A stretch of DNA of 64,000 bases. Origin: Leucoraja erinacea (lineage: Eukaryota). Positions 1-41,687 of the stretch are shown in pieces; within the stretch, counting starts at the first letter, position 1; each line of letters begins with the position of its first letter. Where the stretch lies: NCBI RefSeq assembly GCF_028641065.1, contig NC_073406.1, forward strand, positions 16,926,001 to 16,990,000, given 5' to 3'. Made by a program: the position numbers and the translations under genes. Under the pieces are notes generated by a model. That model did not search any database. It saw nothing but the letters and a program-made list of their open reading frames with translations, and was not told the origin of the DNA.

Positions 1-152
1 TCATACCATTATTAGCATTACTTCAGAACACAAACTGATGCACAATTTGTTTTCAACATTTCCTTCAATACCAATAAAGTATAAGAGTTCCATAATCACT
101 CACAAAATGTTCAGCAAGTCAAACATTTAGCTTCCCGATTAGTATAGCATAC

Positions 153-5195: not shown

Positions 5196-5234
<39 letters not shown>

Positions 5235-7410: not shown

Positions 7411-7437
7411 CTCCATCAAGATTATCAAAAGAATGTT

Positions 7438-7584
7438 CACAAAAATGCTGGAGAATCTCAGAGGGTGCAGCAGCATCTATGGAGTGAAGGTACCTTCGCT
7501 CCATAGATGCTGCTGCACCTGCTGAGTTTCTCCAGCATTTTTGTGTACCTTCGATTTTTCAGCATCTGCAGTTCCTTCTTGAAC
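7438..7584. mobile_element. Penelope-derived fold-back short element with 14-bp TSD
   Basis: ATCAAAAGAATGTT at 7424-7437 and 7585-7598; internal inverted arms CACAAAAATGCTGGAG...CTCCAGCATTTTTGTG. Confidence 0.7.
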
Positions 7585-10972: not shown

Positions 10973-11036
10973 CTGTTGATAAATCCATAGCCATTTCTTA
11001 CGTTGAACCACTTTACTGTTCCAAGAACCTTTGTTG
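10973..11036 (-). CDS. YBX1: YBX1 exon 2 ([22 protein letters not shown]), cold-shock domain RNP1
   Basis: 64-nt exon with AG/GT boundaries; canonical cold-shock domain sequence. Confidence 0.97.
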
Positions 11037-15960: not shown

Positions 15961-16289
15961 CGTCCACAATACTACACTGCTGTCCACTGTGTAGGTAGGG
16001 ATAACAGGACCGGTATGAACAGGTGCACCGTTATTGTTCGTTTTTAAGTATGTGTTTGCTTGTATGTGTGTCACAAAGTGCTGGAGTAACTCAGCGGGTG
16101 AGGCAGCATCTCTGGAGAGAAGAAATGGGCGACGTTTCGGGTCGCGACCCTTCTTCAGAATCTGTGATTCCTTGTGTCCGTATGTGTATGTATATGGGTG
16201 TGTATATGTATATATATGTGTGCGTGTGCATGCGTATGTGCGCGTTTGTGTGTGCCTGTCTGTATGGATATGTGTCTACATATATAGAT

Positions 16290-18285
16290 TTAAGAGAGTT
16301 TATTGTCATGTGTCCCAGATAATACAATAAAATTCCTGCTTTGCACAATAGAATATTGCAAGCAGAAATAATGCAGAACAGATCAGTGTGTCCATATACC
16401 ATTGAATATATATATATATATATATATGTATACACACAAATAAATAAACATATAAAGTGCAGTAGGCTAATTAAAGTTCAGATTTTGTTTGAGTTATGTT
16501 TAATAATCTGATGGCTGTGGGGAAGTAGCTATTCCTGAACCTGGTTGTTGCCGATTTCAGGCTCTTGTACCTTCTACCTGAAGGCAGTGGAGAGATGAGT
16601 GTGTGGCCAGGATGGTGTGGGTCCTTGATGATGCTGCCAGCCTTTTTGAGGCAGCAACTGTGATAGATCCCCTCGATGGTAGGCAGATGATGGACTGGGC
16701 AGTGTTTACAACTTTTTGCAGTCTTTTCCGTTCCTGGGTGGACAAGTTGCCGAACCAAGCCACGATGCAAACGGTCAGCATGCTCTCTATTGTGCACCTG
16801 TAGAAGTTAGAGAGAGTCCTCCTCGACATACCGACTCTCCGTAATCTTCTCAGGAGGTAGAGGCGCTGATGTGCTTTATGATTGCATCATTGTTCTGGGA
16901 CCAGGAGAGATCTTCGGAAATATGAACGCCCAGGAATTTGAAGCTCTTGACCCTTTCCACCATCGACCCGTTGATATAAACGGGGCTATGGGTCCCCATC
17001 CCACCCCTTCCAAAGTCCACAATCAGTTCCTTGGTTTTGCTGGTTTTGAGAACCAGGTTATTGTGCTGGCACCATTTGGTCAGTCGGTCGATCTCACTTC
17101 TATACTCTGACTCGTCTCCATCAGTGATACGTCCCACAACAGTGGTGTCGTCGGCGAACTTGATGATGGAGTTTTCCCTATGACGGCTACGCAGTCATGG
17201 GTATAGAGTGAGTACAGCAGGGGGCTGAGCATGCAGCCTTGAGGTGCTTCCGTGCTGATTGTTATCGAGATGACACATTTCCACCAATGCGAACAGACTG
17301 TGGTCTGTGAATGAGGAAGTCGAGGATCCAATTACAGAGGGATGTGCAGAGAACCAGTTCTGAGAGCTTGGTAACCAGCTTGTAGGGGATGATTGTATTA
17401 AATGCCGAGCTGTAGTCAATGAATAACAGCCTGGCATATGAGTTTTTGTTGTCCAAGTGGTCCAGAGCGTAGTGGAGAGCCAGCGAGATTGCATCCACCG
17501 TTGATCTGTTGTGGCGGTAATTGAACTGCAGTGGATCCAGGTTTTTGTCGAGGTATGAGTTGATTTGTGCCATGATCAGCCTCTAAAAGCACTTCATCAC
17601 CTCAGACATTAGTGCCACTGGTCGATAGTCATTGAGGCACGTCACCTTGCTCTTCTTGGGCACCGGTATTATTGATCAGTTTACTATATTATTATACAAT
17701 CAGGTCCAGGCGCTTTCCGAGGGTTCACCCCTCGGGAGGATTTTCTGACGTCGACCTCTGTGACTGTGACTGAAAAACCATCACGGCGAATGGGGGCTCG
17801 GGAAGGCACATCAGTATTCTCTCTATCAAAACGTGCATAGAATGTATTGAGCTCGTCAGGGAGTAATGAATGCTTTGCTGACATTTGAGCTGCCTCCTGA
17901 TTTCGCCTTGTAGGAAGTTATGGTATTCAAGCCCGGCCACAGTTGCCAAACATCCGTCGCATCCTCCAGCTTGGAGCAAAAGTGTCTTTTGGCCTTTTTG
18001 ATGGCCTTACCAAGGTCGTATCTGGACTTCTTGTAGACCTCCGTATCTTCGGACATGAATGCCCAGTGTCTGGTCTTCAGAAGAGCGCGCGCGGATCTCA
18101 TAGTTCATCCAAGGCGTCTGATTGGGAAACACTCGGAAGAAATTTATTGGGATCCGGTCCTCCACGCATTTCTTTATGAAGTCTGTAACGACTGTGGCGT
18201 ATTCATTCAGGTCCATTGCCGAGTCCCTGAACATTGCCCAGTCTACAGACTCCAAACAGTCCTCATTGTACTTCCTCTTTTCCCA
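16290..18285 (-). mobile_element. Rex1/Babar-type (L2-group) LINE, 5'-truncated, frameshifted RT
   Basis: Peptides [58 protein letters not shown] in several frames. Confidence 0.9.
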
Positions 18286-18304
18286 ACTTGACACCATTCA
18301 TATA

Positions 18305-19365
18305 ATAATCTGCCTTCCAGTTTTTGCCACCTCACATTTATCCACATTAAACTGCATCTGTCATGCATCTGCCCACTAATCCAACCTGTCCAAGTAACCC
18401 TGCATCATCATAGCACCCTCTTCACAGTTCACATTGCCACCCAGCTTTGTGTCATCTGCAAATCTGCTAATGTTACTTTTAATCCCTTCATCTAAATCAT
18501 TAATGTATATTGTAAATAGCTGCAGTCCCAGCACCGACCCTTGCGGTACCCCACTAGTCACTGCCTGCCATTCTGAAAGGGACCCGTTAATCCCTACTCT
18601 TTGTTTCCTGTCTGCCAACCAATTTTCTATCCATGTCAATACCCTAACCCCAATACTATGTGCTCTAATTTTGCCCACTAATCTCCTGTGTGGGACCTTA
18701 TAAAAGGCTTTCTGATAGTCCAGATACACTAACATCCACTGGCTCTCCCTTGTTCATTTTCCTAGTTCCATACTCAAAACATTCCGGAAGATTAGTCAAG
18801 CAGGATTTCCCCTTCGTAAATCCATGCTGACTCGGACCGATCCTGTTACCGCTATCCAAATATGCCGCTATTTTCATCTTTTATAATTGACTCCAGCATC
18901 TTCCCCACCACCGATGTCAGGCGAACTGGTCTATAATTCCCTGTTTTCTCTCTCCCGCCTTTCTTAAAAAGTAGGATAACATTAGCTACCCTCCAATTCA
19001 CAGGAATTGATCTTGAATCTTTGGAACGCTGGAAAATGATCACCAATGCGTCCACGATTTCTAGAGCCACTTCCTTAAGTACCCTGGGATACAGACCATC
19101 AGGCCCTGGGGATTTATCAGCGTTCAGTCCCATCAGTCTACCCAACACCATTTCCTGCCTAATGTGAATTTCTTTCAGTTCCTCTGTCACCCTAGGTCCT
19201 TTGGCCACTAGTACATCTGGGAGATTGTTTGTGTCTTCCTTAGTGAAGACAGAAGACTATTTTTTTTCCTCTTCACATACCTAAAGAAGCTTTTACTATC
19301 CTCCTCTATATTCTTGGCTAGCTTACCTTCATGCCTTACCTTGCATCTTTTCTCCCCGTTTTGCC
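18305..19365 (-). mobile_element. CR1-clade LINE RT fragment
   Basis: KSPGPDGLYPRVLKE, NYRPVRLTSVVGK, YLDYQKAFYKVPH, GVPQGSVLG, FADDTKL. Confidence 0.92.
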
Positions 19366-21049
19366 TATGAAACATGATCTATCCATATTGAGAGATGCAG
19401 CCTGATCTGCTGAGTTACTCCACTCTGGTCTTTTTTGTCTTCTTGTACTGCAAGTCTGATTTAAGCACGACCAGTTCAAAAAACGTTTGGTTATCCAGGT
19501 GTGGTAAAATAATGTTATTGAAAGAATGCCACCTTGATCGCATAGTCATAGAATCATTAAAATGTATGATGCCAAAATGGATGTCCAAGAATCAGTTACT
19601 GGACTCATAAAAACATCTTCTACACCCATCATTATTTCCCCTCCATCACAATTAACAGGGCTCTGAACCATCTCCATTCCATTTTCTGTTCTCACGCAAA
19701 GCCTTTCTCATCCAGGACAAGGATAGGTTCACAATGTCTGCCCTACTATCAGGCAAGGATAGGTTCCAACAAACTGCTGGAGGAACTCAGCAAGTCGAGC
19801 AATATTTGTGGAGGGAAATGGACAGTCGACGTTTTGGGTCGGGATCCTTCATCTGGACTGCTTAGGAAAGGTTCCCAATGTCGACCCTACCAATCACCAC
19901 CTTCAATGGATCACATTCTGTAATAACTCCACCATCAATGTGAAACCATCAGTCGAACACATTTCAAACAGGGCTTTCCCTCAACGGTTCACTGATATCC
20001 ATCATTATCCATTCATAGAATCGTACATCCATGTAGATCAGAAAAAGGCCCTTGTTTCTCATACAGCACCTTCCATTGCAACTCTTCACTTTCCCTCTTG
20101 CCTTCTCACCATCCCAAACATTTATTTTCTATTTTATCATATCTTGAATTTCACTCTAAATTCTTAACCACAATTCCCCTCATTATGTCATTCCCTTCTT
20201 TCTGAAATATATGGTCATCATTTTGAATCATACCTATGATTTCTATACTCAAATTATATTTGTGATCCCTAAAAAACTATGTTTTTCCTATTGTTCTTCT
20301 TATGCTGTTTGTGAAATATGTTTGCTTATTTGTTTTTTAACCATTTTTAAACCATCTTTGATTTCCCACTTCCAAGTTTAATTTCACTTACACTCTCTGC
20401 ATTTTGTAAAACTTTCTGCAGCATTGTGCTCCCTACATTTGACATGTGCTTTCTATTTAGTACAGTCCTCAAAATCCAGGTGTTTTAGATTTGGGAGGTC
20501 CACATCCCTTGGAATTAAAAGGTTTGCCTTTACTATTGTATCCTTGACACCATCAAGTAGTGGTTTCCGGTTTAGTTTTACTACAATTCTTCACAGCATA
20601 CTCTGAATAAAGTTGAGAAGAATTAATATATCTTTGAAATATTCTCAGTTAAACATGTTCAAATTATTATTATCAGCAAACTGTTTGCTTCTATTTGACA
20701 TAATTTCCTAAAATCTAGAACCGGCCCCCTTTCTAGTTGCTAAGTTGCTAAGTACTAATTTAAAATGTTCTCTTGAGTACTTCAGACACAGGGAATGAAG
20801 GGGTATACCCCTTCAGAGCATGTGCTGGCAGATGAGATTAATTTATTTTGGCATCATGTTCGGCACTGCTATTGTGGGCCGAAGGGCCTGTTCTGCAACC
20901 ATGCCGTTCTGCGTTCTATCTCGAAATGCTGACCACTTATTACTCTTAAACCATTAAACCATCATGGAAGGCTGAATCCTTCTAAAATTACCGTCCTTTC
21001 GTTTTCGAACCTGCTAAAATTGACGTTTGCTCTGTCAAGCTTAACAAGC

Positions 21050-21600
21050 TAGACACTGTTAAACAATGATGAGATGGCATACAGAATGGAGATAGGGAGC
21101 TTAGTAACATGGTGTCAAGATAACAACCTCTCCCTCGATGTCAGCAAAATGAAGGAGCTAGTCATCGACCAGGAGTGGGGTGGAAAACGTGCCCGTCTGC
21201 TTCAATGGCACTGAAATGAAGATAGTCAAATTATTGAAGGTTACTATCACCACAATCGACCTAGTTCAACTATATTGATGAATGGCCAGGAAACACTACT
21301 TCCTCAGAAAAGTAAGGAAATTCAGCATATTCCCAGTACTCAGCAATTTCTATGGAAAGCTTTGGAGTGCATCGCTTTCATAGGAATGCACCGCAGCTTG
21401 GTTGGGCATCTCCTCTGCCCAAGAATCTGCAGAAAGCAGTGCAGCCCAGTGGAACCAAAATAATCAAGACCCACTCAAATCCCCGGTCATTCCCTCTTCT
21501 GCTCTCTCCCGTCGGGAAGAAGATATAAAACCTTAAAAGCACACACTACTAGATTCAAGAACAGCTACTGTTATCAGCCTCTTCAATAGACTTCTTGTAT
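21050..21600 (+). mobile_element. Degenerate Rex/Babar LINE 3' fragment
   Basis: WCQDNNLSLDVSKMKELVID and LPSGRRY-like stretches. Confidence 0.7.
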
Positions 21601-21667
21601 ACCAAGGATGTATTCCAGATCTACCAACCTACCTCGTTATAGCCCCAGCACATTGTTTTCTTTTGAC

Positions 21668-21950
21668 TTTAGAGATACAGCATGGAGACAAGCTCTTTGG
21701 CCCACCGACTCTGCACCGATCACGAATCACCGCATACTTTAACAATAACCTACGCACTAGAGACAATTTACAATTTACAGAAGCCACTTAACCTACAAAC
21801 CTGTACATCTTTGGAGTGTGGGAGGAAACCGGAGCACCCGGAGAAACCCATGCGGTCACAGGGAGAATGTACAAGCTCCATACAGACATTCTATGATCAG
21901 GATCGAACCCGGGTCTCTGGTGCTCTAATGCACAACACTACCACTGTGCT
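21668..21950 (-). mobile_element. tRNA-derived V-SINE/HE1-like SINE
   Basis: GTGGGAGGAAACCGGAGCACCCGGAG core; B-box GGTTCGATCC on minus. Confidence 0.75.
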
Positions 21951-24896
21951 GCACTCTGCACTTTCTTTGTAACTGTAACATTTTATACTGTACTCTTGTT
22001 TATTTTTTCTTTTGTACTACCTGATGTATGGTGCGATCTGTCTGGATAGTATGCGAAAAAACATTCACTATATCTCTGTACTCATGACAATAATAAACCA
22101 TTGCAGTTCTTAATTTGTGAATGGTTTCCGAAGATTGGTTTCCCATTACTAAATTCCAGGTCTGCTCTACATTCCCATTCTCCACCTCTTACTTTTCTTG
22201 CAAATTTCTATCTAATCTTTTTGATAGATTCAAGGGATAAGCTTCAGCCAAGGCCACATAACACATATCTAAAGGCAAAACCGTTCAACTCATATGCAAA
22301 GGGGCCCTTGCAAAATTTAAATAAAGGGGGTTGATACATGAATAGCAATGAAGTGGGATGATGGTTAGAATTTTACACTACCTTTCATTGGATCTTCACA
22401 AAATGGATCACCTCTCCTCTGAATTTTGAACTGGTCTCAGAGATCTGCAGTGCCCTCTTGAAAGATGAAGTAAACTCAGTGCGTGATATATGCTCACCCA
22501 AAGATCCTCTGTGACAGCATAGTCACATGAAGTATGACATAGCTTTCATGACCCTGAAATGAATCTCAAATTGGAGAAGTTTCTGATGTTTGAAAATAAA
22601 TCAGGGTTTTTTTTCATAGTTACTCACATAGGATGTAGGCTTCATTGGCAATGCCAGCCTTTATTGTCCATTCCTAATTGCCCCTGAATTGGAAGGCAAT
22701 TAGAATCAGATACTGCGATGCTGCTGGATAAATGTAGATAGGTCAGGTCAGGTAAGGAAATAGCCATGAATGGCTATAATAAACTTAATTGAAATAACAG
22801 CAATCCATGTAATTGCAATGGGAGTCACTTGGGAATTTTCATTGATGGAAATTTGTAGACATGCCCGGCATTTGTCCTGATTGCTCCAGAGAAGGTGATG
22901 GGGAACTGTCATCTTAAATAACATGAAGCAATGATTCAAATGAGTGGCTACAGTTCAGATACAAGGTCAGCCACATTGCTGCGGGGTCTGGAGTGGCACA
23001 CAGGCCAGACTGGGCGAGGATTACAATTTTCCCACAGGATTCTGGTGAACCAGAGAAGTGTTCACAAAAAAAAATAAACTAACTGCTAGAGGAACTCAGT
23101 GGGCCAAGCAGTATCTGTGGCAGGAAATGGACAGAATGTTTCAGGTGGGGACCATTCTTTAGACTAGCATTTACAACAGAATGGTGTTTTGTCATTACAT
23201 AGAACACAGAAATGTACAGCACAGGAACAGATCCTTCAGCCCACAATATCCCTGCCAAGCAATATCCCTCCAGTCCTCTCTCTGCACATGATCCATATCC
23301 CTCCAATCCCTGCATATCCATGTAGGCATCGAGAAGCCTTGTATCTGCTATTATATCTGGGTAAACCACCACCCCAGGCCACCCACCACACCCACCAAGC
23401 AAAAATGCTTGCCCCGCACATCTGCAAAAACCTTCTGCTCTCACATTTAAGCTATACTCTCTAGTCCTCATCATTTCAACACTGGGGGAAAAAGATCCTG
23501 CTCTACAACATAGACAGTTTATTTACACAAATTCAAACCTCCTTGATGCCCCAAGGTATTTCCTTATTTAGAGTATTGCCAGATATCGAATTACAAATAC
23601 GGGTTTTGTCAACTTTCTGTAGTACTATTTTTACTGGGTTCCATATTTACATTCTGGGAGTGGTGTATGAATGATATCAAGTCATGGACATTAGGATATG
23701 CAGATTACTGTGTTATACTTTGACCATTCACTTCCTCGAACTTTACAACAGGCACGTACAGATCATCAAGTTTAAAACGATCCTTTGTTCCAAAAGCTAA
23801 AGCATTATGATTCACTCTTGAATGTAGTCTGTTATGGAAGGAATTAGGGAAAGGCAAAATGCCCGGGGGGGGGGGGGGGGGATTTCAGTGGATCAGGCAG
23901 CATCTGTGGATGCATAGGGATGGTCAACATTTTGGGTCGAGACCCTGCATCAGGACTGAAAGTGTAGAGGGGAAGTAGCCAGTGTAAAGGGATGAGGGGA
24001 GGTAAATTATGGCAAGTGATAGGTGGAACAAGTTGTGCAGTGGGGGGGGGGGGGGGGGGGGGGGGGGGGAAAAAACAGAGGCTGATGGTGAGAGGTTGAG
24101 ACAATAGGGAAAAAAAGTCAGGTGGTGCCGTGTTGTGGGCGGGAGGGGGAAAGGACAGTGAGAGGGTAGAAGGTGACCGATAAAACCAGATAAGGGAGGG
24201 ATGATGGCAGAAGGAACCAGCAGGGAAGGGGATTGGAGGTGGACCAAGAGAGAGGAACCTTGGTGAGTAGGAACTGCACTTGTTGGAATCACGAGCAAAT
24301 CACAAAGTTCTGGAGGAACTCAGCAGGTTAGGCGGCATGTGTGGAAGAAATGGAGAGACAACGTTTCAGATCAGGACCTTTCTTTGGATTGTTCTTCCCC
24401 GTAATCACAAAGCCTCCATTGTGACATGATGACAAACATTGATCATTTCTATTTAACTCCACAAAGCTGTCACGGTAAGACATGATTAATGGTTTGAAAG
24501 CAAAAGACACTGCAAATCTGAAATAAAAACAGAAAAAGCAGGAAATAGTCAGCATTTGTGTAGAGGAAACCAGGGTTAATATCTGGGGTTTGTCCGTTTC
24601 CTCCATAAATGGTGCCTGATGTGTTGTTTCTCCAGCACTTTGTGTTTTGCCCAGGTAGCTAGATGTCATTTGCATTCTTTAAGAACAAATCTCTTGTTCC
24701 GGAAACACTAGGAGATGGAAAATTGCCAGGAAACTGGGAGCAGAGGCTGCCAATTGCCATCACCATGCAAATTTTGTAGCACAAGGACAATCACTATACA
24801 TCACCGCAATGAAGGAAGTTTAAATTCTCCGTATTACTAATTAGAGATTTCTGGAAAAAGTCATCTTCAAGTGACTCTTCCTCTCAATCAACTTTG

Positions 24897-25100
24897 AGGG
24901 GTGACACGGTGGCGCAGCTGGTAGAGCCGCTGCCTCGCAGCACCACAGACCTAGGTTCAATCCTGAACTCAGATGCTATCTGTGTAGAGTTTGCATGTTC
25001 TCCCTGTAGCTGTGTGGGTTTCCTCCGGTTTCTCCCCACATACCAAAGACGTGCAGGTTGATAGGTAAATTGGCCTCTATAAATTGCCTGTTTGTAGGTG
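24897..25100 (+). mobile_element. tRNA-derived V-SINE/HE1-like SINE
   Basis: A-box TGGCGCAGCTGG, B-box GGTTCAATCC, GAGTTTGCATGTTCTCCC core. Confidence 0.8.
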
Positions 25101-25144
25101 ACTGGAGGGAATTGATAAAAAAATATGGAGAGAATAATCATGAA

Positions 25145-25580
25145 CTCTTCTCGTGGATTGTCACCTTGTCTTGGTGGAGAAGCTTGTGTGGACCCGAGAT
25201 CCTGAGAGCGATGCCGTCTGGAGCTATGCTCCTGGTAGGGCCACCCATGGCGGTAGGATCGACGGGACGGACTCTGATAAAGAGCAATCCAATCAAGACC
25301 TCAATGGTGGAACAGGCGGAGGACGATGGCTGACCTTAGTGAAGCGTCACAACGGCTGGGAAGGCGGATGAAGGCTGCAGCAGAAAAGGGTCTCTGGTCG
25401 TCTTGGACTCTATGCCACTGGATCCTGACCCAGATCTGTCAAGGACCGTGAGGTGGCTGTCTGTGCACCAGTCTCTCCACGTTAAGCAAAGTCACGCATA
25501 GGCATCCTCCATATAGGTCATAGCATCCTGGAGACACCCATGCTCAGCCATGACCGAAGGGGGCCTAAGAAGGATGATGG
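25145..25580 (+). mobile_element. RTE-clade-related short non-autonomous element
   Basis: CACCTTGTCTTGGTGGAGAAGCTTG...CTGGAGCTATGC...GGTAGGGCCACCCATGGC resembles RTE 5' UTR motifs; related to 38917-39223. Confidence 0.6.
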
Positions 25581-26420
25581 ACTCGGTGTCAGAGGTTATG
25601 GCGAGAAAGCAGGAGAATGGGGTTAGGATGAAGAGATAGATCAGCCATGATTGAATGGTTGAGTAGACTTGATGGGCCAAATGGTCTAATTCTACTCCTA
25701 TCATGTATGACATGACCCTATGACCTACATTAGTGTAGGATCAGGGTTAATGGGTGGTTGAAGGTCAGCATGAACATGGTGGGCTAAAAGACCTGTTTCC
25801 ATGCTGTATCTAATTTTCCAGCCAGGGTAAACCACCCTCCAATCTATACACCTCATCTTTAGTTTCAGATTCCTGTATGGGGCTGTCACATTCCTTCACC
25901 AAGTCTGTGTGACTGACCCCTGTTCCTGGTCCAATACTTTGGTAACCTTCTCAAAATAAATTCAACTAGATATGTCAGTCATGACCCTGCTTTTACAAAG
26001 TGTTACAAGGAGTTCTTAAACATTTGAAGAGATGGAAAGTGCCAGGTTTGAGAATGGAAGTAATTCTAGATACCTCGCTAAATTACCAGTGCGTTTAACA
26101 TGGGTTCAATGGGCAGATTTGTACTGTAACCTAAACAAATTAAAGCTTCCATTTCATTACACAAAGTAACTCCAATAATTCCATGAGCCGCCTAAAGCTA
26201 TTTGGTGGACAGTTTGATGAAATGAAAAAAGGAATATTTATTTTTGTGTGCAAATAATAGATTGCAAAACATGACCAAATTATTCTTCACATTATGCAAT
26301 ATGTCTTCAAACTTTTGTTATTAGTACTGAATCGAAAGTGAGAAATGGCTGAAAGATTTAGAAACTTTATATCAGAGTAAGAGTCATACAGCCTGCCAAC
26401 CAAAATGGTATCTTAGATCA

Positions 26421-26775
26421 CAAAACCTAGGAGCAGAAGTAGCCTATTTGGCCCATCGAGTCTGCTCTGCCATTTGGTATTTGCTGATCTATTTCCCCCC
26501 CACCCCCCCCAACCCCATTCTCCTGCCTTCTCCTCATAAACTTTGACACCCTTACTAATCAAGAATGTATCAATCTACACTTTAAAAATACCCAATGACT
26601 TGGCCTCCACCACCATCTGCAGCAATTAATTCTGCAGATTCGCCACCCTTTGGCTAAAGTAATTCCTCCTCATCTCCATTCTAAAGGTACATCCTTGTAT
26701 TCTGAGCCTGTGCCCTCTGATCCTACCACTGGAAACATCCTCCACATCCATTCTATCTAGGCATTTCATTATTCA
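26421..26775 (-). mobile_element. CR1 3' fragment
   Basis: Reverse-complement similarity to other CR1 tails in the window. Confidence 0.7.
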
Positions 26776-26817
26776 CTAGATCTATGCTGGTCCCAATTGC
26801 CTGTGTTTAGCTTTTTG

Positions 26818-27120
26818 AAATGAAATGAAATGAAATGAAATGAAAATGAAATGAAATGATTCAATTTATTGTCATTGTCAGTGTACAGTACAGAGACAAC
26901 GAAATGCATTTTTAGCATCTCCCTTGAAAGGGAGACACAGGGCGTCGCGGTGTGCCCGCGCCTGCCGCCGTACATTCCATTACAGGCAAAGGTGGGTGAA
27001 GTGTCTTGCCCAAGGACACAACGACAGTATGCACTCCAAGCGGGATTTGAACCGGCTACCTTCCGGTCGCCAGCCGAACTCTTAGCCCATTGTGCTATCT
27101 GTCGCCCATTGTGCTATCTG
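26818..27120 (-). mobile_element. Distinct tRNA-derived SINE with (ATTTC)n tail
   Basis: A-box TAGCACAATGG, B-box GGTTCAAATCC, GTGTCCTTGGGCAAGACACTT core, AATAAA and pentamer tail. Confidence 0.8.
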
Positions 27121-28469
27121 TTGATGAATCTGTCCACACCCTCTAACCTGCAGGAGCGTTGGGACGTTAATAGTCGATTTGTCAAACTACATTCTTAAAC
27201 AAATATAAATTATCAGGACTAAATCTTTTGAATGATTACAATGCCATTATTTCAGAATAGCAATGTTCTTAAACTGAATCTGCACCAAACAATAAATTTG
27301 TTTTACTCAAATAAAAGTGGACAGGGAGGAATGTTGTCACAAATGTCAGCAGGATTCTGATTCTGATCAGCTGGAAAAGTGGGCCAAGGAATAGCAAATG
27401 GAGTTTAATTTAAATAAGTGCAAGGTGTTTCGAGTTTAGAGATACAGCGTGAAAACAGGTCCTTCGGCACACTATCGGTGACTATCGATCACCCATACGC
27501 GAGTTCTATGTCATCCCACTTTCACATGCTACACACTAGGGGCAATTTACAGAAGCCAATTAACCGACAAACCTGCACATCATTGGAATGTGGAAGGAAA
27601 CCAGAAAAAACCCACAGTCACAGGGAGAACCGCACAGTGCACCCATAGTTAGGATTGAACCCAGGCCTCTGGCACTCTGGTAGTAGCGCCACTGCCGTGT
27701 TGAGTGCATTGCACCATTTTGGGAAGTCAAACCTGGGTAGGACTTTCACAGTGAACAGCAGAGCCCTGGGGAGTGTTGCTTTAGTCCACAAATGATGCTT
27801 GTTTGAACATATATTACAGAAGAAACACATTATTAAAAATAACGTGCCAAATAATTTAAATTAATTTTCCAATTTTTTCAAAATGTAAATTAAAAACAAA
27901 CAAACAAGCAATAGGACATAATTAGTTCCTTCAATTCTAGGTCCATGTTAATGCACAAAATGTAAATATAACTGAAAGATCTAGACTGTGCTTGAAATAA
28001 CGTTTCTTGAGATAAAAGATACAAATACAATTCAATAGGTAGTGGAGATCTTGATACTCTGAAATATGAATACTTTGTACCACTATTTTGTTTCCAAAAC
28101 TATTTTAGCCGTTACAAGTTTCAGCTGATTAGAATAACTTTTTTGAGGGAGACATTGAATGATACATTTGAACCATCAGCTGTTTATGCTACGAAATTCA
28201 ATTAGAAGTAAAGTTTGGAATTTATGTTTTTTTATTTTTTATATGTTTATTGTCCATTATTAATTGTCATTGATCCAATAGGCCCATTATGCAGTTATAC
28301 AGTTTTAAATCAACACATTATATTTTTTAATTTTTTAAAAAGGTTCAATCCAGAGAGGTATCAAAATTTGTCTCATTTGGAAGGGCTGCTGGAGTCCCTG
28401 GATGGAAGGGAGAAAGGAAGTTTAGGGACAAGTGGTACATCTCCTGTGGTTGTAGGGTAGTGTCTGAGG

Positions 28470-28731
28470 AGGTGTGTAGGAAGGAACTGTAGATGCTGGT
28501 TTAAACCAAAGATAGACACAAAATGCTGGAGAGACTCAGCAGGGCCGGCAGCATCTCTGGAGAGAAGGATTTTTGTGTACCTTCTCTGGAGAGAAGGTTT
28601 GGGTGATGTTTTGGGTCGAGACCCTTCGTTAGACTGATCAGTCTGAAGAAGCGTCTCGACCCGAAACAAGACCCATTTCTTCTCTCCAAAGATGCTGCCT
28701 GTCCCGCTGAGTTACTCCAGCATTTTATGCC
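28470..28731. mobile_element. Penelope-derived fold-back short element with 12-bp TSD
   Basis: TAGTGTCTGAGG at 28458-28469 and 28732-28743; inverted arms centred on AGACTGATCAGTCT. Confidence 0.75.
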
Positions 28732-29456
28732 TAGTGTCTGAGGTTGTGTGGGAAATGAGCCAAGGAGTCGCGGAGTGACCTGTATGAAAAGCAGAAAGGG
28801 GTGGGGATGAGGAGATCTTTCAATCAGAAATATATGAGGCTAAGTAATAATAATTATATGCATATTCAAAGTAGCAATCCCTAAAAGGTTACCATTGATA
28901 CTCCACTAATCAGTGGAACCCACAAACATGGGATTGGCACAGCTGACTAGATGTTGGAAAACCATGCATAACATTCTCAAAGCAAAATTAAGGAAGCATA
29001 AAGCACAGACACAAAGTGCTGGAATAACTCAGCGGGTCAGGGCGGAACTGGACAGGTGATGTTTCTGGTCAGGACCCTTCTTCCTATTCAAAGTATAAAT
29101 TTGACACACATTTCCAACATGACATTTTCAGATTTTCCATTCAATCAGATGTTACTCATATTAACCTCCCCCGAACACTTGTCTCTATGACTCTTTTAGG
29201 TTTTTTTCACTGATCACCTTCAGCATAGGTTACTATCTCCACCCTTCTCTCTCAAACCTGATTTACCTGCCTTTCATCCTGAAGGGCTCCGCCTGATAGA
29301 TCACCATTCCTTTTCTCCAGAGATGCTGCTGACCCGCTGAGTTACTCCAGCACGTTGTATCTATCAACCGATCCACCTGGATTCACCTATAACGTGCCAG
29401 ATCTTGGCCTACCCTTTCCCCTCATCTTTTCCCCCCAGCTATCTTTCCTCAGGGTT

Positions 29457-29703
29457 TTGCAGATGCTGGGAAGCAGAAAACAGAAGATAGATACAAAATG
29501 CTGGAGTAACTCAGGGAGGACAGGCAGCATCTCTGGAGAGAAGGAATGGGTGACGTTTCGGGTGGAGGCCCTTCTTCAGACTGATGGGTCTCGACCCGAA
29601 ATGACGCCCATTTCTTCTCTCCAGAGATGCTGCTTGTCCCGCAGAGTTACTCCAGCATTTTGTGCCTATCTTCAATTTAAACCAGCATCTGCAGTTCTTT
29701 CCT
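29457..29703. mobile_element. Penelope-derived fold-back short element
   Basis: Same family as 28470-28731; inverted arms GCTGGAGTAACTC...GAGTTACTCCAGC. Confidence 0.7.
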
Positions 29704-31147
29704 GAGCAGAAAACAGAGCTCAGTTCTGCAGCATCTGTGCAGAAAGAAAGAGTTTGTGTTTAAGGTTGACATTGTTTCATCATAACTCATGAATTTATTC
29801 AATTTAATTCCCTCTCCACTGAATATTTTCATCATTTTCTGGGTTTTAACCCTATGTAGCATTTGATCTCCTTCATGTATTCCATCGGTCTGAAGGAGCA
29901 TCCTGACCCAAAACGTCGTCTGCCCATTTCCCTCCACAGATGCTACCTGACCTGCTGAGTTCCTCCAGCCTTCTGTTTCTTGCTCACGTCTCCTTTTTAT
30001 CCACATTCACCTTCCAACAGTTTCTCACAGCCACGATAGTAATTTAACTACTCAAAATACACAAAACTACTTGTAGGTAAATTCAATCATCTTATTATGA
30101 AAAATGGCGTTTATGATGTTTTAAGTTACAGTTTAAAGCTTCCTTCCTCTGCTACTTCCTCCAGAAGTGGTTCCACTTACATTCTGCTGAGCAGCCAGGT
30201 ACTTCCTGTAAATCGAGGTTCTTCTGCGATCCATGGTGACACTGCCTGCCCAGTAAAATTCCAATAACTGAACCCGTGTTATTTACCTCTATCCCATGGT
30301 TGAAGATTCATGGTTAACTATCATTGCAACTTGATAATTATTCCACGGTCGGTGCTAAAGCTGCTGACTAATGCCTCAGTTTCCATTGTCCTATTTTATT
30401 AGTTGAATTAAAATATGGCACTTCCCTACAGCAATGGCTGAAAACAAAACAAAAAGAGTTCTAGTCATCAGTGGAGATACTGAATTTTCTAAAACGTCCT
30501 TTTTTTAAACATATCAGCAACAATGGCTATTTCAAGGAAGGAACAGTCCAGAGTATAAGTGGTGATCAACTATGAAAGCATCTTTCGAGATGTATATTTC
30601 TTTCAAACCAACTATTCGGAAAGTTAAAATTTATTTTAAAAAAGGAAAACTGCTCCCTAGCAAGTTAATTCATCTTTGCTAAAGATTTAAACTTAAGGAA
30701 TTACGTGCATTCTCACAACCCAGTACTCGAGGCATATACATATTAAGTTGATAAATTAAGTTGTTAAATACATGGAGATCAAAAACTTTATAAAGATAAA
30801 CTCTAGAAAATGTAAATATTCAGTGGAGGAAAAAAAGTTAATACATTCATGAGTTCTGATGAAACACCAACTTTAAACACCAACTCTCTTTCTCCACAGA
30901 TTATCTCTGTCTGGACTGTTTTCTGGTTTTATTTCAGGTTCCAGCATCTGCAGAACACTGCTCAAGGTTTGTTATACCACAGTGCATCAAGTCCTCAATA
31001 CCTGCTGACTTGCTATCTATGGACCCACTTCATCAAGAGGCTGGTCAATCGTTATCGGTAACGTTAATGAACTAGGTGTTCCTCCAGAATTCTCTGCTGT
31101 GTCCTGTGAATCCCGTTTGCTGTGCGACTTTGAATGTTTTAAGTTTT

Positions 31148-31460
31148 AGAGAGATGCAGCATGGAAACAGGTTCTTCGACCCACCGAGACCATGCCGACC
31201 ATTGATCATCCTTTCACACTGGTTCCGTTATCTCACTTTCCCATCCACTCCATTCACCCAAGGGACAATTTGTAGAGATCCAATTAACATACAAACCCGC
31301 ACGTCTTTCGGATGTGGGAGGAAACCGGAGCACCTGGAGGAAACCTACGTGGTCACAGGGAGAATGTGTAAACTCCACACAGACAGCAGACGAAGTTGGG
31401 ATCAAACCCGGGTCTCTGGCACTGTGAGGTAGCAGCTCTATCAGCTGTGCCACTGTGTCG
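31148..31460 (-). mobile_element. tRNA-derived V-SINE/HE1-like SINE, near full length
   Basis: Head ACACAGTGGCACAGCTGATAGAGC, B-box GGTTTGATCC, V-domain-like core, CR1-like tail. Confidence 0.8.
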
Positions 31461-32603
31461 TAATTAAGTGATTTCCTACCAATTGGCAGCTTCCCATCTG
31501 AATGATTAATATTGCTATTTCTATTCATCCCACCACAATATTACCCTATGAATGGTCAATTAGGGTCCTGAAGAGACCTCATCTTATAGAGCTTCAATAA
31601 TTTACAATACATACAGCAGTGTACTTTTGAACTGACAGGGTATTGGAAAAATAGAGGTCATCAGCATAACATAGTTGGCAATAAATGCAATATTGAACAA
31701 TGGAAATTTCATACTGAAATTCAGAGCACAGGAAAAACAGTTGGGAGATCAGTCTGAAGTGTTGACCGTTTTGCTTCCCGCAGATGCAGGCTGACCTGCT
31801 TAGTGTCCGCATATTCCGATTTAATATTAGGGAGATACAATAGACGGGTCTGTTCTAGAGAGGAATGCATGGACCAGGTGGAACTGTCACCATCCTTTAA
31901 TTGGAATGCATCTGGCAGAAGAGGTTGAGGGTTGAAGTTTGAGGGATAGGGTACTGAAGGACTACCTAGGTAAGCGCACAATGAAGAAAAGCAAGACAAG
32001 ATTATACAGATAGAACTGGTTCGGAAGAAAGCTCATGGAGCACGAATATTATCCTAGTTCAGTAAGGTCAGAGTTTAGGATGATTAAAAATTTTAATCAA
32101 TATTCCTACAAGTTCAAGGGATAACAAAAGATATTCAAACTACGTCTCAGCAGAAAACATGAGATAATGTTTCTTTTAAATTAAATTAAATTAAATTATA
32201 ACTGCATTTAAATTGCAACATTATTATGCTGGAACGTTAACTCCTCTACACACAGAATCAGAATGCTGCAACAGGACACCATTTAGCCCACTGATGCTGG
32301 CCATTCTTGAGGATCCCAGCATTTTTAGTTTTTATTTTAGTTCACCAACATGCGTTTATTCTTCAATATTTTTTACAAAATCATGTTATTGATTTATCAG
32401 ATCAAATTATCAGCCTATTAAATAGTGCAAACCAATACAATTTAGTGTTTCAGTGCTTGGCTTATGTGCACAATTCAGACCACAACTTCACAGATAGCAC
32501 TCCATGAAATGAAACAGCCTGCACGTTAGCATCAGTCACCTATCTTATATTATTATTATTATTATCAAATAATACTGCAGTCAAAAGTTGGAGTTTTTAA
32601 AAA

Positions 32604-32720
32604 TTTATTTGCATACAAAATACATACAACGTTTTCAAGAAACTGGTCGGATCTTAAAGGGAAAATTAAAGGAAGCTTTAAAATTTAATTCGAATTGTGG
32701 TATGTCACCTTGATTTTATT
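32604..32720 (-). terminator. Candidate PPIH polyadenylation signals (AATAAA at 32715-32720 and 32604-32609)
   Basis: Two AATAAA hexamers on the minus strand 0.4-0.55 kb after the stop codon; usage not shown. Confidence 0.45.
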
Positions 32721-33134
32721 AGGAAAACACATTTTTGGCATTGGGAACAAACTCCTTAAAAAAAAAAAAAAAATCTATACTGGAATTTGAAATCTTGGTC
32801 ATTCAAAAGAGAATTAAAGCAATATTATACGATGGAGGACTGTCAATCTGTGCTTGTATCCAATTCAAAATGGTGGTTTCAGATCCAGCTGCTTACAAAA
32901 TGATGAGGTTAAATTAAAAATTGGGCATCATGAAGTTACACCAGATTAATATGGTTTGAGCTAGTACGTAAATTGCCCTTCTGATTAGTTCAACATTTCA
33001 AGGGGAAAGCACTGCTCACCTTACCCAAATAAAAAACTCCAAACAGCCATGAACCCACAAAAGACCAGTTTCTGCCAACACTGTGAGGTGTGGTCATACA
33101 GCAGAGACCCAGTGCCTTTCCTTGTCAGCTCACT

Positions 33135-33203
33135 CTACATCTCTCCACATTGTACAATCACCACAGGAAGTTTGGGTTTATTGCTGGGGCCGGAGGGAAC
33201 GTT
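33135..33203 (-). CDS. PPIH: PPIH exon 9, last coding ([22 protein letters not shown])
   Basis: 69 nt to TAG; the nine exons sum to 534 nt = 177 aa, the known PPIH length. Confidence 0.96.
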
Positions 33204-34249
33204 CTGCAGGCAGAAGATACAGGATGAGCAGATAATAAACATGCATTATCTCATAGAAGGTAATCATACAACCTCACAGCTTACTGGTCAATGTTTCACA
33301 TTGGTGCATAACAGATAAGTTTCTACAAAAAGTAGTCACAAATGTGCTGGAGGAACTCAGCGGGTCAGGCAACATCTCTGGAGAACATGAATAGATGATG
33401 TTTCGGGTCAGGACCCTTTTTCACACTCGTTATCAGATGCAGCAGAGGACATGCGAACAATTAATTGATTGAAAGACACAGCATGGAAATAGGCACTTCG
33501 ACCATCGATCACCCGCTTACACTAGTTCTATGTTATCCCACTTCCTACATATTAGAGGCAATTTACAGAGACCAATTGACCTGAATGCCTTTGAAATTAA
33601 TAGACCAAGAATGATGGAACTGGTGGTAGGAAGCATTCAGCAATGGGCAGAGGGATGATATAATGAAGTTGAGGATTGAACCAGTGTGTCTGGGGCTGTA
33701 AGGCAGCAACTTTAACGCTGCACCACTATGCTGCCAGAACTCCTTTCAACGAAAATTCTCAATGAGGATCTAAAGATTGGGAGGAGGGGGCAAGGACAGT
33801 GCAAGAGGGAGAGAAATTGATACATTTTACGTGGTGGATGATCCAAAAGGAAGAGTTGCTTCTGATGGTGGAGCGGAGATTATGACTAACTTTACACTCT
33901 GAGGATTGCTGCTGACATTAACCAGAAATAAATAACAAAACTGCCTATTAGCAAGATGTACACTTTATCATGGTCATTATTACTTGTCGTGAAGCTTAAA
34001 AACATTTAAACAGTAATCTTTAAAATTTCATCAACTGCAGCCATTGTCTGAATTAGTAGAACATAGGACACATATCAATACAGGATGAATAATTCACTGG
34101 TGAACCAGAGAAAGTGAGAAGAGTCAGGGATGCTTAAATGTTCTTCTGATGGAATCAGTGATTCAATGTTAACTGCAAAGGTAATAGAGGTTTGCTGACA
34201 GTAGTTTAAGAAATCCATCTTTAACTGCACAGATCTAACATAATAGACT

Positions 34250-34572
34250 AGACTTTATTCCTTGAAGTGCAGAAGGCTGAGATGTGATTTTATAGAGCTG
34301 CATAAAAGCATGAGGGGAATAGATAGGGTGAATGCCTAGTCCTTTGCCCTGGGTTGGGGTATCAAAAACCAGAGAGTATGGTCTTAAGATAAACGGGGAA
34401 AGATTTAATCGGAACCCGAGGGCCAACATTTGGACACAGAAGGTGGTGGATACATGGCACAAGCTGCCAGGGGAAGTGGTTGCTGCAGGGACAATAATAA
34501 AATGTAAGACATTTAGACAGGTGCATGGATCGGAAAGGTTTCGAGGGAGATGAGCCAAACGCGGGCAGATGC
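34250..34572 (+). mobile_element. CR1 3' fragment
   Basis: WTQKVVDTWHKLPGEVV decayed CR1 C-terminus. Confidence 0.75.
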
Positions 34573-34975
34573 ACAGAGATGCGTGCGATGCAGAGGAATG
34601 TGTTGGATTGTGCAAAACTCCATCCCTTTCAAAATGTTATACCTTTGTCATGGGATTGGGGATGATCTAAATATTCACATCTGTGGTTGATCCCAAGTTT
34701 GCCTGAGAGAGCACATCCTGTGGCATGTTTGCTGGATCATCATTTACAGAACCGGAGAGGAATGATCCTTTTAAACCACACTGCTCCCACCCACACGTTC
34801 CTCACTGGAAAACCCCTGGCATTTATTTTTAGCTGAAGCGTATGCGTGCATTAGACTCAAAGTAAAAACGTTTGGCCGCGGACAGTACCAATGCACTGTT
34901 TGCATAGCAAACATTTAACTTAGCCACATTATTTGCTCCTCGGCTATAAATATATCAAGATGAATAATTACTAAC

Positions 34976-35016
34976 CTCTATTTTTCTCATTACAAGCAAT
35001 CCATCAATTATTTTAC
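34976..35016 (-). CDS. PPIH: PPIH exon 8 (KIIDGLLVMRKIE)
   Basis: 41-nt exon, CAG/GTTAGT boundaries. Confidence 0.95.
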
Positions 35017-36052
35017 CTGGGTAAAAAAAAAAAGTGTTTTCTTTAAGGACTAAATAGGTTGGGGAATTTAAATAGATTCTAAATGCATTGATTAAAACTT
35101 TACAAGGAGGGCAAGGTTCACAGTGTAACGTTTGTGTAACGGCCCCGAGACTTTTGCTTTCTCACTCTGCAAATTCCTTCCCTGATCGTCAAACAAGAAT
35201 CGAGCTCAACCCCCATGATGCCAGAGAACCATGTTCAAACTACTTACTCCCTCCCAAACACAGTTAGGCACAAAATGGTGACCTGTCACAGAATATCATC
35301 GGGCATGGAGCTGATCACCGCTGATCAGTCCCAGTCAGTGAATCCCACCAAGGAATGCAGTGTTAAAATGTACATGGATAAATTTAAATGCTAAAAACAC
35401 ATTTGTGGTATTGATTTCTTCACTTGTTTTTCTGTGGAAATGTCCGAACGCAGGCCCGTGATCACAAGTAAGAATCAAACTGCAAGAAAATGTTATACTT
35501 CCTCCCATTGGTGTGAACAAACCAGCATTTTTTTTAAAGAGGGAAAATGTGACGAATGGCATCAGAATTTACATATAATTTGCAAATAACTGCCATGGAA
35601 TAGAGACACGAGGAACCGCAGATGCCGAAATCTTGAGCAAAACACAAGTTGATGGAGCAACTCAGCAGGTTAGTCACCATCTGGGAAGGGAAGGGACAGG
35701 CAGCGTTTTGGTCGAGACCCTTCTTCAGACTGATGGAGTAGGAGGAAAAAAGGTAGAAAAGAGAGGTGGGTCAGGACAAAGCCTTGCAAGTGATAGATGG
35801 GTACAGTTGAAGGGGTTTATTTGGCAGATGGGTGAAGTAAGAGACAAAGGTTAGAAATGAATAGGAGACATCCAAGAATAAATCCTGATGGGATTGAGGG
35901 CTTTCACAATATCCCTCAAATGTGTGAAGACATAATGATCAGCATTCCCAGTCACAAGCCCCTTATTGAATTTAATGAACAAGTTGCTGCTCTATTGGTT
36001 CTAACCCAGTGGACAACTGCAGCCATGGTAGTCATTGGAAAAGCTTCCTTAC

Positions 36053-36140
36053 CAAAAACAACATGCTTCCCATCCAGCCAATCACATTTAGAACATGTAA
36101 TAAAGAACTGGCAACCATTTGTATTTGGGCCACTGTTTGC
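36053..36140 (-). CDS. PPIH: PPIH exon 7 ([30 protein letters not shown])
   Basis: 88-nt exon; [10 protein letters not shown] motif. Confidence 0.97.
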
Positions 36141-36258
36141 CTGTTAGAAACAGAAAAGTAGTTACTATAGAAATTGCATTGAACAGTTTATTAGATATTT
36201 TTAGATATCACATATCTAGTTTTAGAAATGTTACGTAAGTAACATGGAGTGCTCTTAC

Positions 36259-36351
36259 CATGGACAATAGACCAGGGAGAGTGTGCTTCATTCTAAAGTT
36301 TTCGTCAGCAAATGGCCCTCTGTAGATGCTGCATACACCAGTTCCGTCTCC
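36259..36351 (-). CDS. PPIH: PPIH exon 6 ([31 protein letters not shown])
   Basis: 93-nt exon, CAG/GTAAG boundaries. Confidence 0.96.
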
Positions 36352-37033
36352 CTGTGGGCGAGATGTTGTCAGCATTACTTTGGTGTGTAGTCAGAAAAAT
36401 ATGGCACCAGCAAACACAAAAGAGGAAACATGCATTCTTGTAAAAATTAAATTAGTTACGTTCTGGAGATTTTAGTGGAATAGAAGGTCATGCTTATGTG
36501 AAGTGTTGAAACAGCACAATATGTACTTGGAGGATGAGCTATGATTTTTAAAAATAATTGTGTACATGCAAACACACAGGAAGGATGTGAATGGGCAGAG
36601 GAGATTCACCAGGATATTGCCTGAGAGTTATGGTGAGAGACTGGATAAGTTGGGCTGATTTTCCTTGGAGCAGAGGAGGCTGAAGGGAGGATCTGATATC
36701 AGAACATAAGCCATTCACAAATATTACAGGTAATGTAAAGAAAACATTACCAGAGTGCAGTAATTGTGTTACAGTATGATAGTGTTACAGCTCCAGAGAA
36801 AAAGTCCTGGGTCCACAATGAGGAAAGTTGGAAGATCGGGACTATACCCTATATTAGGGGGGATAGTTCAGTAGTGGGAAAGCAGAGGGGACGAATCTCT
36901 TCCTGAATCTGATGGTAGGTGCTTTCAAGCTTTGGAATCTTCTGCTCAACAGGAGAAAGGAAAATAGGGAATGATTGTAATGAAAAAAATCTTGATTATG
37001 TTGGCTGCTTCCTTGAGGCAGCATGGTGCAGAT

Positions 37034-37077
<44 letters not shown>

Positions 37078-37187
37078 GGGGGGGGGGGAAGGGGTGCACT
37101 GGGCTATATTCATAACATTCTGGAATTTCTTGCACTCTTGGAAGGAGCAGTTGCCAAATCATGCCGTGATGCAACCCAATAGGATGC

Positions 37188-37304
37188 AGGAGTCTGAAGA
37201 TGGGTCTCGACCCGAAATGTCACCCATTGCCTGTCCCGCTGAGTTACTCCAGCATTTTGTATCTACCTTTGATTTAAACCAGCATCTGCAGTTATTTCCT
37301 ACAC
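37188..37304 (+). mobile_element. Penelope-derived short element inserted into a Rex/Babar fragment
   Basis: 7-bp TSD AGGATGC at 37181-37187 and 37305-37311; hammerhead-like motif at its 5' end. Confidence 0.65.
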
Positions 37305-37744
37305 AGGATGCTTTCTATGATGCATCAACAGAGAACAGTGTGCCTCCGTTGTACCAAAAATCGTACGCCCCTCCTCTTCAATAGTAAAGCATTGCAGCAG
37401 AGGAGATAAACCAAATATGAAGATATTCATAGAAATAAAACAAAGTTATTTGGCATTTTATTTCCACATCAGGCAGGAGTTTGAGCAGAAAGCACTTCTC
37501 TTTATTCCTTTTCTTTAAACTGATAGTTGCTGGTTTAGTTGATTCAGAATTAAATTATACAGACCGCATCCAAAATTTAATTTCACCTGATTTACTAATC
37601 TCATGAGACAGCAGAGAGAATAATTGAAATGATACGATGAAAAGGAAAAAAACAGCTCAAGCTACTCTCTGTGATGCGAGTGGGCAATTCGGTGCAATAC
37701 TTGACGCTCAAGAAAAAGATGGCTATCACTCGAGTACTACTCAC

Positions 37745-40678: not shown

Positions 40679-41687
40679 CTGGTGAAACAAGTAAAATAAA
40701 ACTCACTTTTATTGAAATGGAGCTGATAATATTCAAGGTTCTTGAAACGAGCATGGTGTTAATGTTCAATCCATGTTGGTGCCCGAAACAACCTGCCATG
40801 GGTGGTGGCGGACACAGATACACAATAGTGGCATGCAAGATGCTTTTATCTGGGCACATGGATACGAGGGGAATGCAGGCAGAGGATATTAGTTTAACTT
40901 GGCATCATGTTCGACGTGGACATTGTGGGACAAAAGGCATGTCCCTGAGCTGTACAGTTTATTGTTCCAAGAGAGCAGGGAAATTAAGATTTAAGTGGTG
41001 GCTTCCAATCCTACTGGGACATAATAGACTCAGTGAAGTAAACGTGTTCAATCTTGTTCTTGTACATAGTGATCTGCACTCTGCAATATGGTGATTTGTT
41101 AACTGATTTCATCACTGCAACTTATTTCAGCAACTTTTACTAGGGGCAGGAGACATCAATGGGAAAACCCAAATTTAATCAAAAAATACAAAGTGCAGGA
41201 GAAACACAGCTGGTCAGACAGCATCTTTGGAGAATGTGGATAGGTTACGTATATTTTTTCAGAAGGGTCCCGACCCGAAACTGCACCTAGCCATTTTCTC
41301 CAGAGATGCTGCTTGACCCAATCAGTTGGTCCTGCACTTTGTGTCTTTTGTTCTAAACCAGCACCTGCAGTTTCTTCCTAAAAACATGTTACAAGATCTT
41401 TATAGTAGAGAGCAGAACTCAGTAACTAGGTTCACCAAAGTGAAAAGGAAGCACAATGAATTATTTCAGGAAAGAAAGTGAGATAATGCACATGTAAATA
41501 CTGAGTCTTTAGTCCACTAAAGAAGATATTATCTAGCCACTTTTCACCACTAATGTAAAGGGGAAAAAATCTGCTCAGATACTGGTACCACTGGATAAAC
41601 TGGATCATGGGCTTGTATAGTTTCCAAACTGGTGGGAACATCAAACCAAGACCAAAGACTGTATATGCAACAAAAAAATGCACTGAC

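Follow-up and report, generated by a model that had tools for sequence, protein, structure and literature searches.

A minimal hammerhead motif in the pseudo-long terminal repeat of a Neptune-type Penelope-like element of Leucoraja erinacea

The 64,000-nt stretch of the Leucoraja erinacea genome analysed here (assembly GCF_028641065.1, contig NC_073406.1, positions 16,926,001 to 16,990,000; hereafter the window, whose own numbering is used) holds many copies of a short repeat bearing a minimal hammerhead ribozyme motif, together with the remnant of a Penelope-like element (PLE). This raises the question of whether the repeat is a mobile unit in its own right or a part of that element. The initial annotation of the window preferred the former and proposed a high-copy, non-autonomous, retrozyme-like family. 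We find that the repeat is the pseudo-long terminal repeat (pseudo-LTR) of a Neptune-type PLE and does not form a separate retrozyme family. The very-high-copy, Penelope-derived minimal type I hammerhead motif of the initial annotation was thus retained, while its separate non-autonomous family turned out to be the terminal repeat of an autonomous element. With high confidence we regard the scattered copies as short, neutrally decaying insertion products of this retrotransposon, likely originating from an internal start of reverse transcription on uncut RNA and a stop at the front edge of the motif.

The repeat family, its parent element and its hammerhead

The exact 28-nt motif occurs 23,550 times in the 2.19-Gb genome and not once in the reversed control. 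In the window, with up to 4 substitutions allowed, there were 10 motif matches compared with 0 in 30 shuffles, which confirms that the abundant short repeat carries a hammerhead motif. A hidden Markov model (HMM) built from the window gave 44 family matches there, and a tighter HMM gave 39 distinct ones; with the first HMM, 281 family matches were obtained vs none on reversed sequence. Sixty 10-kb stretches of the genome, taken at fixed offsets, contained 263 family matches, which extrapolates to ~0.96 million copies genome-wide. An Rfam scan returned no hammerhead family match at E ≤ 5.

A search of the genome with a peptide of the endonuclease region yielded 121,008 first-look candidates. 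At 40 sampled loci, the motif was located ~100-125 nt behind the endonuclease stop in 32 of 37 open reading frame (ORF) ends. Young, near-intact elements have open frames of up to 1,052 residues, and the 1,052-aa frame combines, in a single ORF, the reverse transcriptase (RT) domain RVT_1 (E 7e-6) and GIY-YIG (E 0.009), both below the Pfam cut-offs. The RT/GIY-YIG ORF contains the linker CX4CX2C at residue 919. As a CX2-5CXXC linker between RT and endonuclease is a mark of Neptune or Nematis (PMC8557442), and a preprint names Neptune and Poseidon as the vertebrate PLE types, the element was assigned to the Neptune type, a clade assignment made by motifs and not by a tree. Young full-length units also occur in tandem (spacing 3.7-3.96 kb, identity 98-99.6%); the following unit then has the motif once more in its 5' leader, and its ORF starts ~160 nt behind the motif. 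The tract upstream of the motif is nearly all C and U. Young short copies and ORF-linked copies belong to the same sequence clusters.

A truncated element lies in the window itself, where the initial annotation had correctly recognized a Penelope RT/GIY-YIG remnant; it matches residues 634-961 of an intact genomic ORF (E 5.5e-25) and has pseudo-LTRs around it:

46024..46973 (+): C-terminal half of a Penelope-like RT, linker and start of GIY-YIG; 5'-truncated and broken
47183..47370 (+): 3' pseudo-LTR of the truncated element, after a pyrimidine-rich 3' untranslated region (UTR); motif (~47212) decayed
45735..45885 (-): inverted pseudo-LTR ~140 nt upstream of the truncated element, to which it presumably belongs

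The hammerhead was compared across eight clusters (subfamilies) derived from 372 near-complete copies. All eight consensuses share the core boxes CUGANGA, GAAA and UH, an extra A before stem II (between A9 and 10.1) and the ACGU palindrome (15.2-16.2) of a loopless helix III; a G10.1-C11.1 pair is possible in 86% of 342 copies. The core is variable at 0 of 13 positions and the downstream sequence at 16 of 52, the remaining 36 being invariant across subfamilies (p 0.027 with one hand correction, the oldest cluster's G12, which read A, having been set to G as CpG decay). Stronger conservation of core than of flank, on which the initial annotation had made its proposal depend, therefore holds for these eight main subfamilies but not for two rarer lineages with altered cores (U4>A, A9>C). 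Changes between the main subfamilies affect loop II, one stem II pair (U-A to U.G), residue 17 and residue 1.1; in the youngest lineage residue 17 went from C to U, i.e. GUU instead of GUC. Loop II is variable at 2 of 4 positions vs 1 of 8 in stem II, in agreement with the earlier remark that the loop varies more than the stem. Among the main subfamilies the stems show only one-sided changes and no two-sided covariation: one pair in stem II and one in stem I went from U-A to U.G. In the rarer lineages, one extra C-G pair was gained on both strands.

Stem I, already described as very short, is in fact nearly absent. Moving outward, its pairs are possible in 83%, 90%, 12%, 11% and 96% of copies, and helix I of the main lineages consists of 2 bp, two mismatches and 1-3 bp more. 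A canonical hammerhead with full helix I and a loop 1-loop 2 contact is not present. In 87-91% of copies, the stem II GGGU has a possible second partner in the four bases that follow the cut site, and the pair is kept at both variable positions; this competing pairing may act as a switch or merely reflect C-richness. The hammerhead fold lies 1.7-16.5 kcal/mol above the minimum free energy (MFE) in all 10 constructs. The rarer lineages spoil a clean picture of a ribozyme, since their stem I is longer but their core altered: among 30 loci, U4>A accompanies a 5-bp stem I in 9 and A9>C a 3-bp stem I in 19, with both changes in 2. A search for an older lineage in which a canonical CUGAUGA core goes together with a stem I of 5 bp gave 0 matches, and a looser pattern gave 0 of 34.

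Dispersed copies decay neutrally. The catalytic G12 is unprotected, as it changed in unbiased copies at a rate (48 of 171) like that of other CpG sites (G16.2, 50 of 171; loop G, 40 of 166; downstream CpG G, 38 of 171), and non-CpG core positions changed in 6.4% vs 8.4% for invariant downstream positions. Of 300 unbiased copies, 152 cover the motif; the core is preserved in 50 of these; 25 have stems II and III in addition, and 19 the 2-bp stem I as well. The scattered copies are likely inactive.

Copy ends, arrangement and origin

Copy ends were numbered with C3 as 0. The 3' ends of 63 young copies accumulate at two sites ~35 nt apart (27 at ~+91..98 and 23 at ~+129..137), which differ by a tail of 30-40 bp. 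For PAc, a Poseidon element of the green anole, such tail-spaced ends correspond to two internal start sites of reverse transcription (PMC11167929). The 5' ends were read from the 300 unbiased copies; 294 had sufficient flanking sequence, and filtering by score and length left 218 of them. The ends concentrate at -7..-1, with 69 events in 546 base-exposures (12.6% per base), compared with 16 in 1550 (1.0%) upstream (-50..-8) and 42 in 5375 (0.8%) downstream (+14..+41). When truncations at -4 were simulated, the calls fell at -4..-7, near the true place. This edge coincides with an initiator-like TCAGT; a rotifer pseudo-LTR has an initiator-like TCACT (PMC3846280). As 189 of the 218 copies run across the cut site, the template RNA was uncut; 44 reach at least 8 nt upstream and 6 begin at +28/29, the cut site. 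A pile-up at the cut site was considered and rejected, with six copies only and fewer on inspection. Long copies are truncated at many places, and among 20 long loci one begins at -73 and two at +132/+134, right at the tail end.

Neighbouring copies within 60 bp of each other (300 copies, 664 kb) were arranged head-to-head in 51 cases, in tandem in 9 and tail-to-tail in 3. Micro-tandem junctions number 601 genome-wide. Parsing of 90 of the first 100 listed gave 78 distinct junctions, 73 of them non-inverted, and in 57 of these 73 the second unit begins at -2..-8. Because their spacers are nearly all different, the junctions must have arisen one by one. A few arrays have units of 42-51 bp with a whole minimal hammerhead core in each:

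G000:C1:162023479-162023645: array of 42-51 bp units
G000:C4:64292197-64292409: array of 42-51 bp units
G000:C3:7905511-7905656: array of 42-51 bp units

These arrays are possible seeds of satellites, and they constitute natural substrates for a dimer cleavage assay.

In three raw-read RNA runs labelled with this species, 66-94% of the reads on the motif continue into other sequence, and the motif RNA reads therefore stem from dispersed copies. An intron from the ORF end to the front edge of the motif, giving frame fusion or a better stem I, was rejected as well: the joined form had 1 genomic match, the frame is closed in the young lineage, and no GT-AG joint was found among the RNA joints listed.

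Based on these observations, we suggest the following course of events. The protein of the element would nick DNA, and cDNA synthesis would begin behind the hammerhead, at a distance of either 95 or 130 nt. Reverse transcription would copy uncut RNA and often halt at the front edge of the motif, leaving solo copies; priming or jumps at this edge might give inverted pairs and micro-tandems, and read-through past it long copies. A transcript start at the initiator-like TCAGT would fit the sharp fall-off, but the genome-wide cap test given below lends it no support. By default, we predict, the 2-bp stem I and the competing pairing keep the ribozyme inactive; cleavage would require a dimer in a tandem transcript or the help of the element's protein, and lone copies would leave host RNA intact. 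In published experiments, minimal hammerhead ribozymes failed to cleave as monomers and cleaved weakly as dimers (PMC4209133), and one of nine Xenopus dimers was reported to cut. A bolder version, which we put forward only tentatively, takes the short copies for a fossil record of the Penelope cycle. Transcription would start from the front edge of the hammerhead and reverse transcription ~95/130 nt in, with a run-off like retroviral strong-stop cDNA, and jumps would build head-to-head pairs, micro-tandems and pseudo-LTRs. The ribozyme switch would be held off by the bases after the cut site lying on stem II, and lineages would mute it differently, by a short stem I or an altered core.

Several observations do not sit easily with the pseudo-LTR interpretation as a whole. 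None of the 20 long loci has a full-length body beginning exactly at the 5' edge, and this edge is spread over ~8 bases with no one start site. Six copies do begin at +28, two of them being one duplicated copy and one being misanchored. There is no cap signature genome-wide, G preceding AGU in 562 of 1,856 non-C cases (30% vs 27.7% expected); a cap-derived G, seen at 19 of 33 micro-tandem junctions (p 0.0003, with some G's templated and a crude parser), was not upheld genome-wide and was dropped. Starts of RNA reads do not accumulate at the edge or at the cut site, and neither starts nor ends do so at the motif, in the three runs of oligo-dT and single-cell libraries, which are poorly suited to this purpose. 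Direct ORF linkage was seen in only some subfamilies, which makes a short lineage independent of the autonomous element possible. Moreover, the three A's of GAAA changed less often (20 of 513) than downstream A's (66 of 846; p 0.004), reflecting either sequence context or weak selection.

Three other explanations were weighed. In that of a distinct non-autonomous, retrozyme-like family, tandem transcripts of short units would be split into monomers by hammerheads acting as dimers; the monomers would be closed into circles, which the Penelope protein would mobilise in trans. It could draw on the excess of short copies over long ones (only 44 of 218 extend at least 8 nt upstream), on the micro-tandem junctions with their few 42-51 bp arrays, and on a 2026 preprint reporting tandem retrozymes in the sole chondrichthyan sampled (bioRxiv 10.64898/2026.07.22.740005). 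Non-LTR retrozymes do resemble the skate repeat in their type I hammerhead, kinship with PLE pseudo-LTRs and short non-coding units (PMC7229834, bioRxiv 10.64898/2026.07.22.740005). However, they form tandem arrays of 150-450 bp units (same sources), whereas copies here are dispersed or head-to-head, the latter far outnumbering tandem neighbours; no such array of hammerhead-bearing units was found in the window, the range searched for longer-period arrays. Retrozymes also have canonical hammerheads and circular RNAs (PMC7229834), in contrast to the minimal motif and the unit ends off the cut site described above. Tandem arrays, a canonical hammerhead and unit ends at the cut site are three retrozyme features that this family lacks. 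The varied micro-tandem spacers argue against this explanation too, as do the shared clusters of young short and ORF-linked copies and three natural micro-dimers, which, with stem III forced, lie 11-17 kcal/mol above the MFE. We therefore consider a retrozyme-like family highly improbable.

The two remaining explanations leave the element in place. One of them ascribes the 5' pile-up to a polymerase stall or a preferred break at the junction of the hammerhead and the C-rich 3' UTR, the short copies being ordinary 5'-truncated 3' ends made without run-off. It concerns a step and not the identity of the repeat, and it overlaps with the explanation preferred here; we hold it to be a real possibility, though somewhat doubtful. 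The diffuse edge without a genome-wide cap-G excess, the upstream tract of C and U and the scattered truncation of long copies all agree with it, but loss is back to ~1% per base inside the C-rich tract itself, subfamilies with differing upstream tracts have the edge in common, and the edge falls on the initiator-like TCAGT, reminiscent of the rotifer TCACT (PMC3846280). The other regards the motif as a vestige: in these lineages it would have lost the ability to cut, and its sequence would persist because it serves as a promoter or binds a protein. The rarity of stem I pairs 3 and 4 (possible in only 11-12% of copies), the GUU of the youngest lineage, the majority state of U4>A or A9>C in the rarer lineages and the equally invariant 36 of 52 downstream positions point in this direction, as does the PAc element, whose insertion in vitro was unaffected by ribozyme mutants (PMC11167929). 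Yet the changes of the eight main subfamilies all fall at tolerant places, two hypermutable core CpGs were kept, and the similar PAc motif cuts with the help of protein (PMC11167929), so a vestige seems rather unlikely to us.

Copies and neighbouring features in the window

Apart from those accompanying the truncated element, the following copies, here taken as pseudo-LTR insertions, were described in the window:

16071..16161 (-): solo pseudo-LTR whose motif (16131-16158) is an exact minimal hammerhead; single U.G pair as stem I
12598..12728 (-): solo pseudo-LTR with ~35-nt tail; motif at 12700-12727 with two CpG-type changes, without stem I
29486..29670: head-to-head pair of 29486-29584 (-), with motif 29552-29579 and a stem II mismatch (C.A), and 29578-29670 (+), core truncated
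37190..37305 (+): solo pseudo-LTR with tail; internal deletion of ~20 nt; ACGU palindrome lost through C15.2>T; lies in a host intron, in antisense orientation
28433..28738 (no single strand): cluster of two (-) and one (+) copies; head-to-head junction 28637/28638; cores broken
19769..19860 (-): rarer-lineage copy; stem I 5-6 bp, core U4>A
23880..23958 (-): copy of another rarer lineage; stem I 3 bp, core A9>C
33338..33427 (-): decayed copy, core broken; sense strand of normally spliced host intron 33204-34975
35640..35733 (-): decayed copy, core broken; sense strand of normally spliced host intron 35013-36048
41185..41346 (no single strand): head-to-head pair
58204..58361 (no single strand): head-to-head pair
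7435..7549 (no single strand): head-to-head pair without the hammerhead part
60798..60898 (+): decayed copy, core broken

Four copies had at first been singled out as the best. The one at 16131-16158 (-) is exact, those at 37194 and 12700 carry one and two changes, and that at 29552 has a C.A mismatch in stem II and falls outside the motif pattern given for them. The 16131 copy had also been called fully intact, which is correct for the motif but not for a ribozyme with a single U.G pair as stem I. Nine of ten copies listed as decayed lie inside family matches, the tenth (56873) being the first ~18 nt of the motif, adjoining a match. The 37190..37305 copy likely has a 7-bp target-site duplication, read by eye; an automatic search for such duplications at four window copies gave nothing convincing.

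A cyclophilin-type gene occupies ~32600-54450 (-), and four of its introns (CT..AC), between 33203 and 37744, were confirmed by reads. Its introns carrying the 33400, 35710 and 37194 copies are spliced normally, the two copies in sense orientation having broken cores. The 16131 copy is situated a few hundred bases upstream of the apparent first exon of a probable Y-box protein gene, in the same orientation; a cold-shock-domain exon (Pfam CSD, E 7e-6) of this gene was found at 10900-11226 (-) and ~15300-15660 (-). At ~26900-27110, read depth is high, with poly(A)-type loose ends at 26909, perhaps owing to mismapped repeat reads or to the end of a transcript.

The segment 54494-56393 contains a 198-nt direct repeat (95%) and 265-nt inverted arms (99%) flanking a fragment of a long interspersed nuclear element (LINE); it is either a recent local duplication-inversion or an assembly feature, and it doubles one truncated family copy (54843, 56238). 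LINE-type RT fragments (RVT_1) are present at 16471-17582 (-) and 18376-19256 (-), and a LINE 3'-end repeat recurs at 6686, 44285, 53260 and 55481. A weak Rfam match to the CPEB3 (HDV-like) ribozyme at 51067-51140 (+) (25.6 bits vs a cut-off of 35, E 0.016) is probably due to chance. Positions 44521-44700 are a run of 180 N bases.

Known relatives and significance

Minimal hammerheads in PLE pseudo-LTRs, mostly dispersed singletons, were published in 2014 (PMC4209133); the motif is hence ordinary as a ribozyme discovery. The skate motif shares with those metazoan type I hammerheads the core boxes, the extra base between A9 and G10.1, the G10.1-C11.1 pair, the palindromic loopless helix III and the pseudo-LTR location, as well as the mostly dispersed single motifs with some opposite-strand pairs. 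It differs in helix I, with 2 bp in the main lineages (5 bp in one rarer lineage) vs 4-5 bp in Schistosoma, in helix II, with 4 bp vs 7-8 bp, and in a copy number far above the 4,000-9,000 motifs of coelacanth and Xenopus (PMC4209133). The helix I descriptor published there was a relaxed one. We class the skate motif with the minimal hammerheads of PLEs, the element being of the Neptune type and helix I unusually short.

Like endonuclease-positive PLEs of the Neptune type (PMC8557442, PMC3846280), the element has one ORF with RT followed by GIY-YIG and a CX2-5CXXC linker, and with endonuclease-positive PLEs (same sources) it shares partial tandems, mostly head-to-head inverted 5' copies, an optional 30-40 bp tail and solo pseudo-LTRs. 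Unlike in those elements, solo pseudo-LTRs prevail here, and their 5' edge is sharp and falls at the hammerhead. The likeness to PAc (PMC11167929) comprises two 3' ends one tail apart, an uncut RNA template and the absence of RNA-seq ends at the cut site. The ORF of PAc, on the other hand, starts inside stem II and not ~160 nt behind the motif, and its ribozyme is protein-assisted and dispensable for insertion in vitro. No paper on this repeat family in skates or rays was found, nor any account of a 5' edge at the hammerhead, in a literature search whose coverage excluded most subscription journals and Repbase.

About a million dated, sharp-ended insertions, together with young, near-identical full-length units, constitute material for direct tests of how Penelope elements transpose. 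With it one could ask at which point the transcript begins and if it is cleaved, by what route inverted and tandem ends arise, and which function the hammerhead serves. If the competing pairing is indeed an off-switch, it would explain the weak cleavage in vitro and the tolerance of dense intronic copies.

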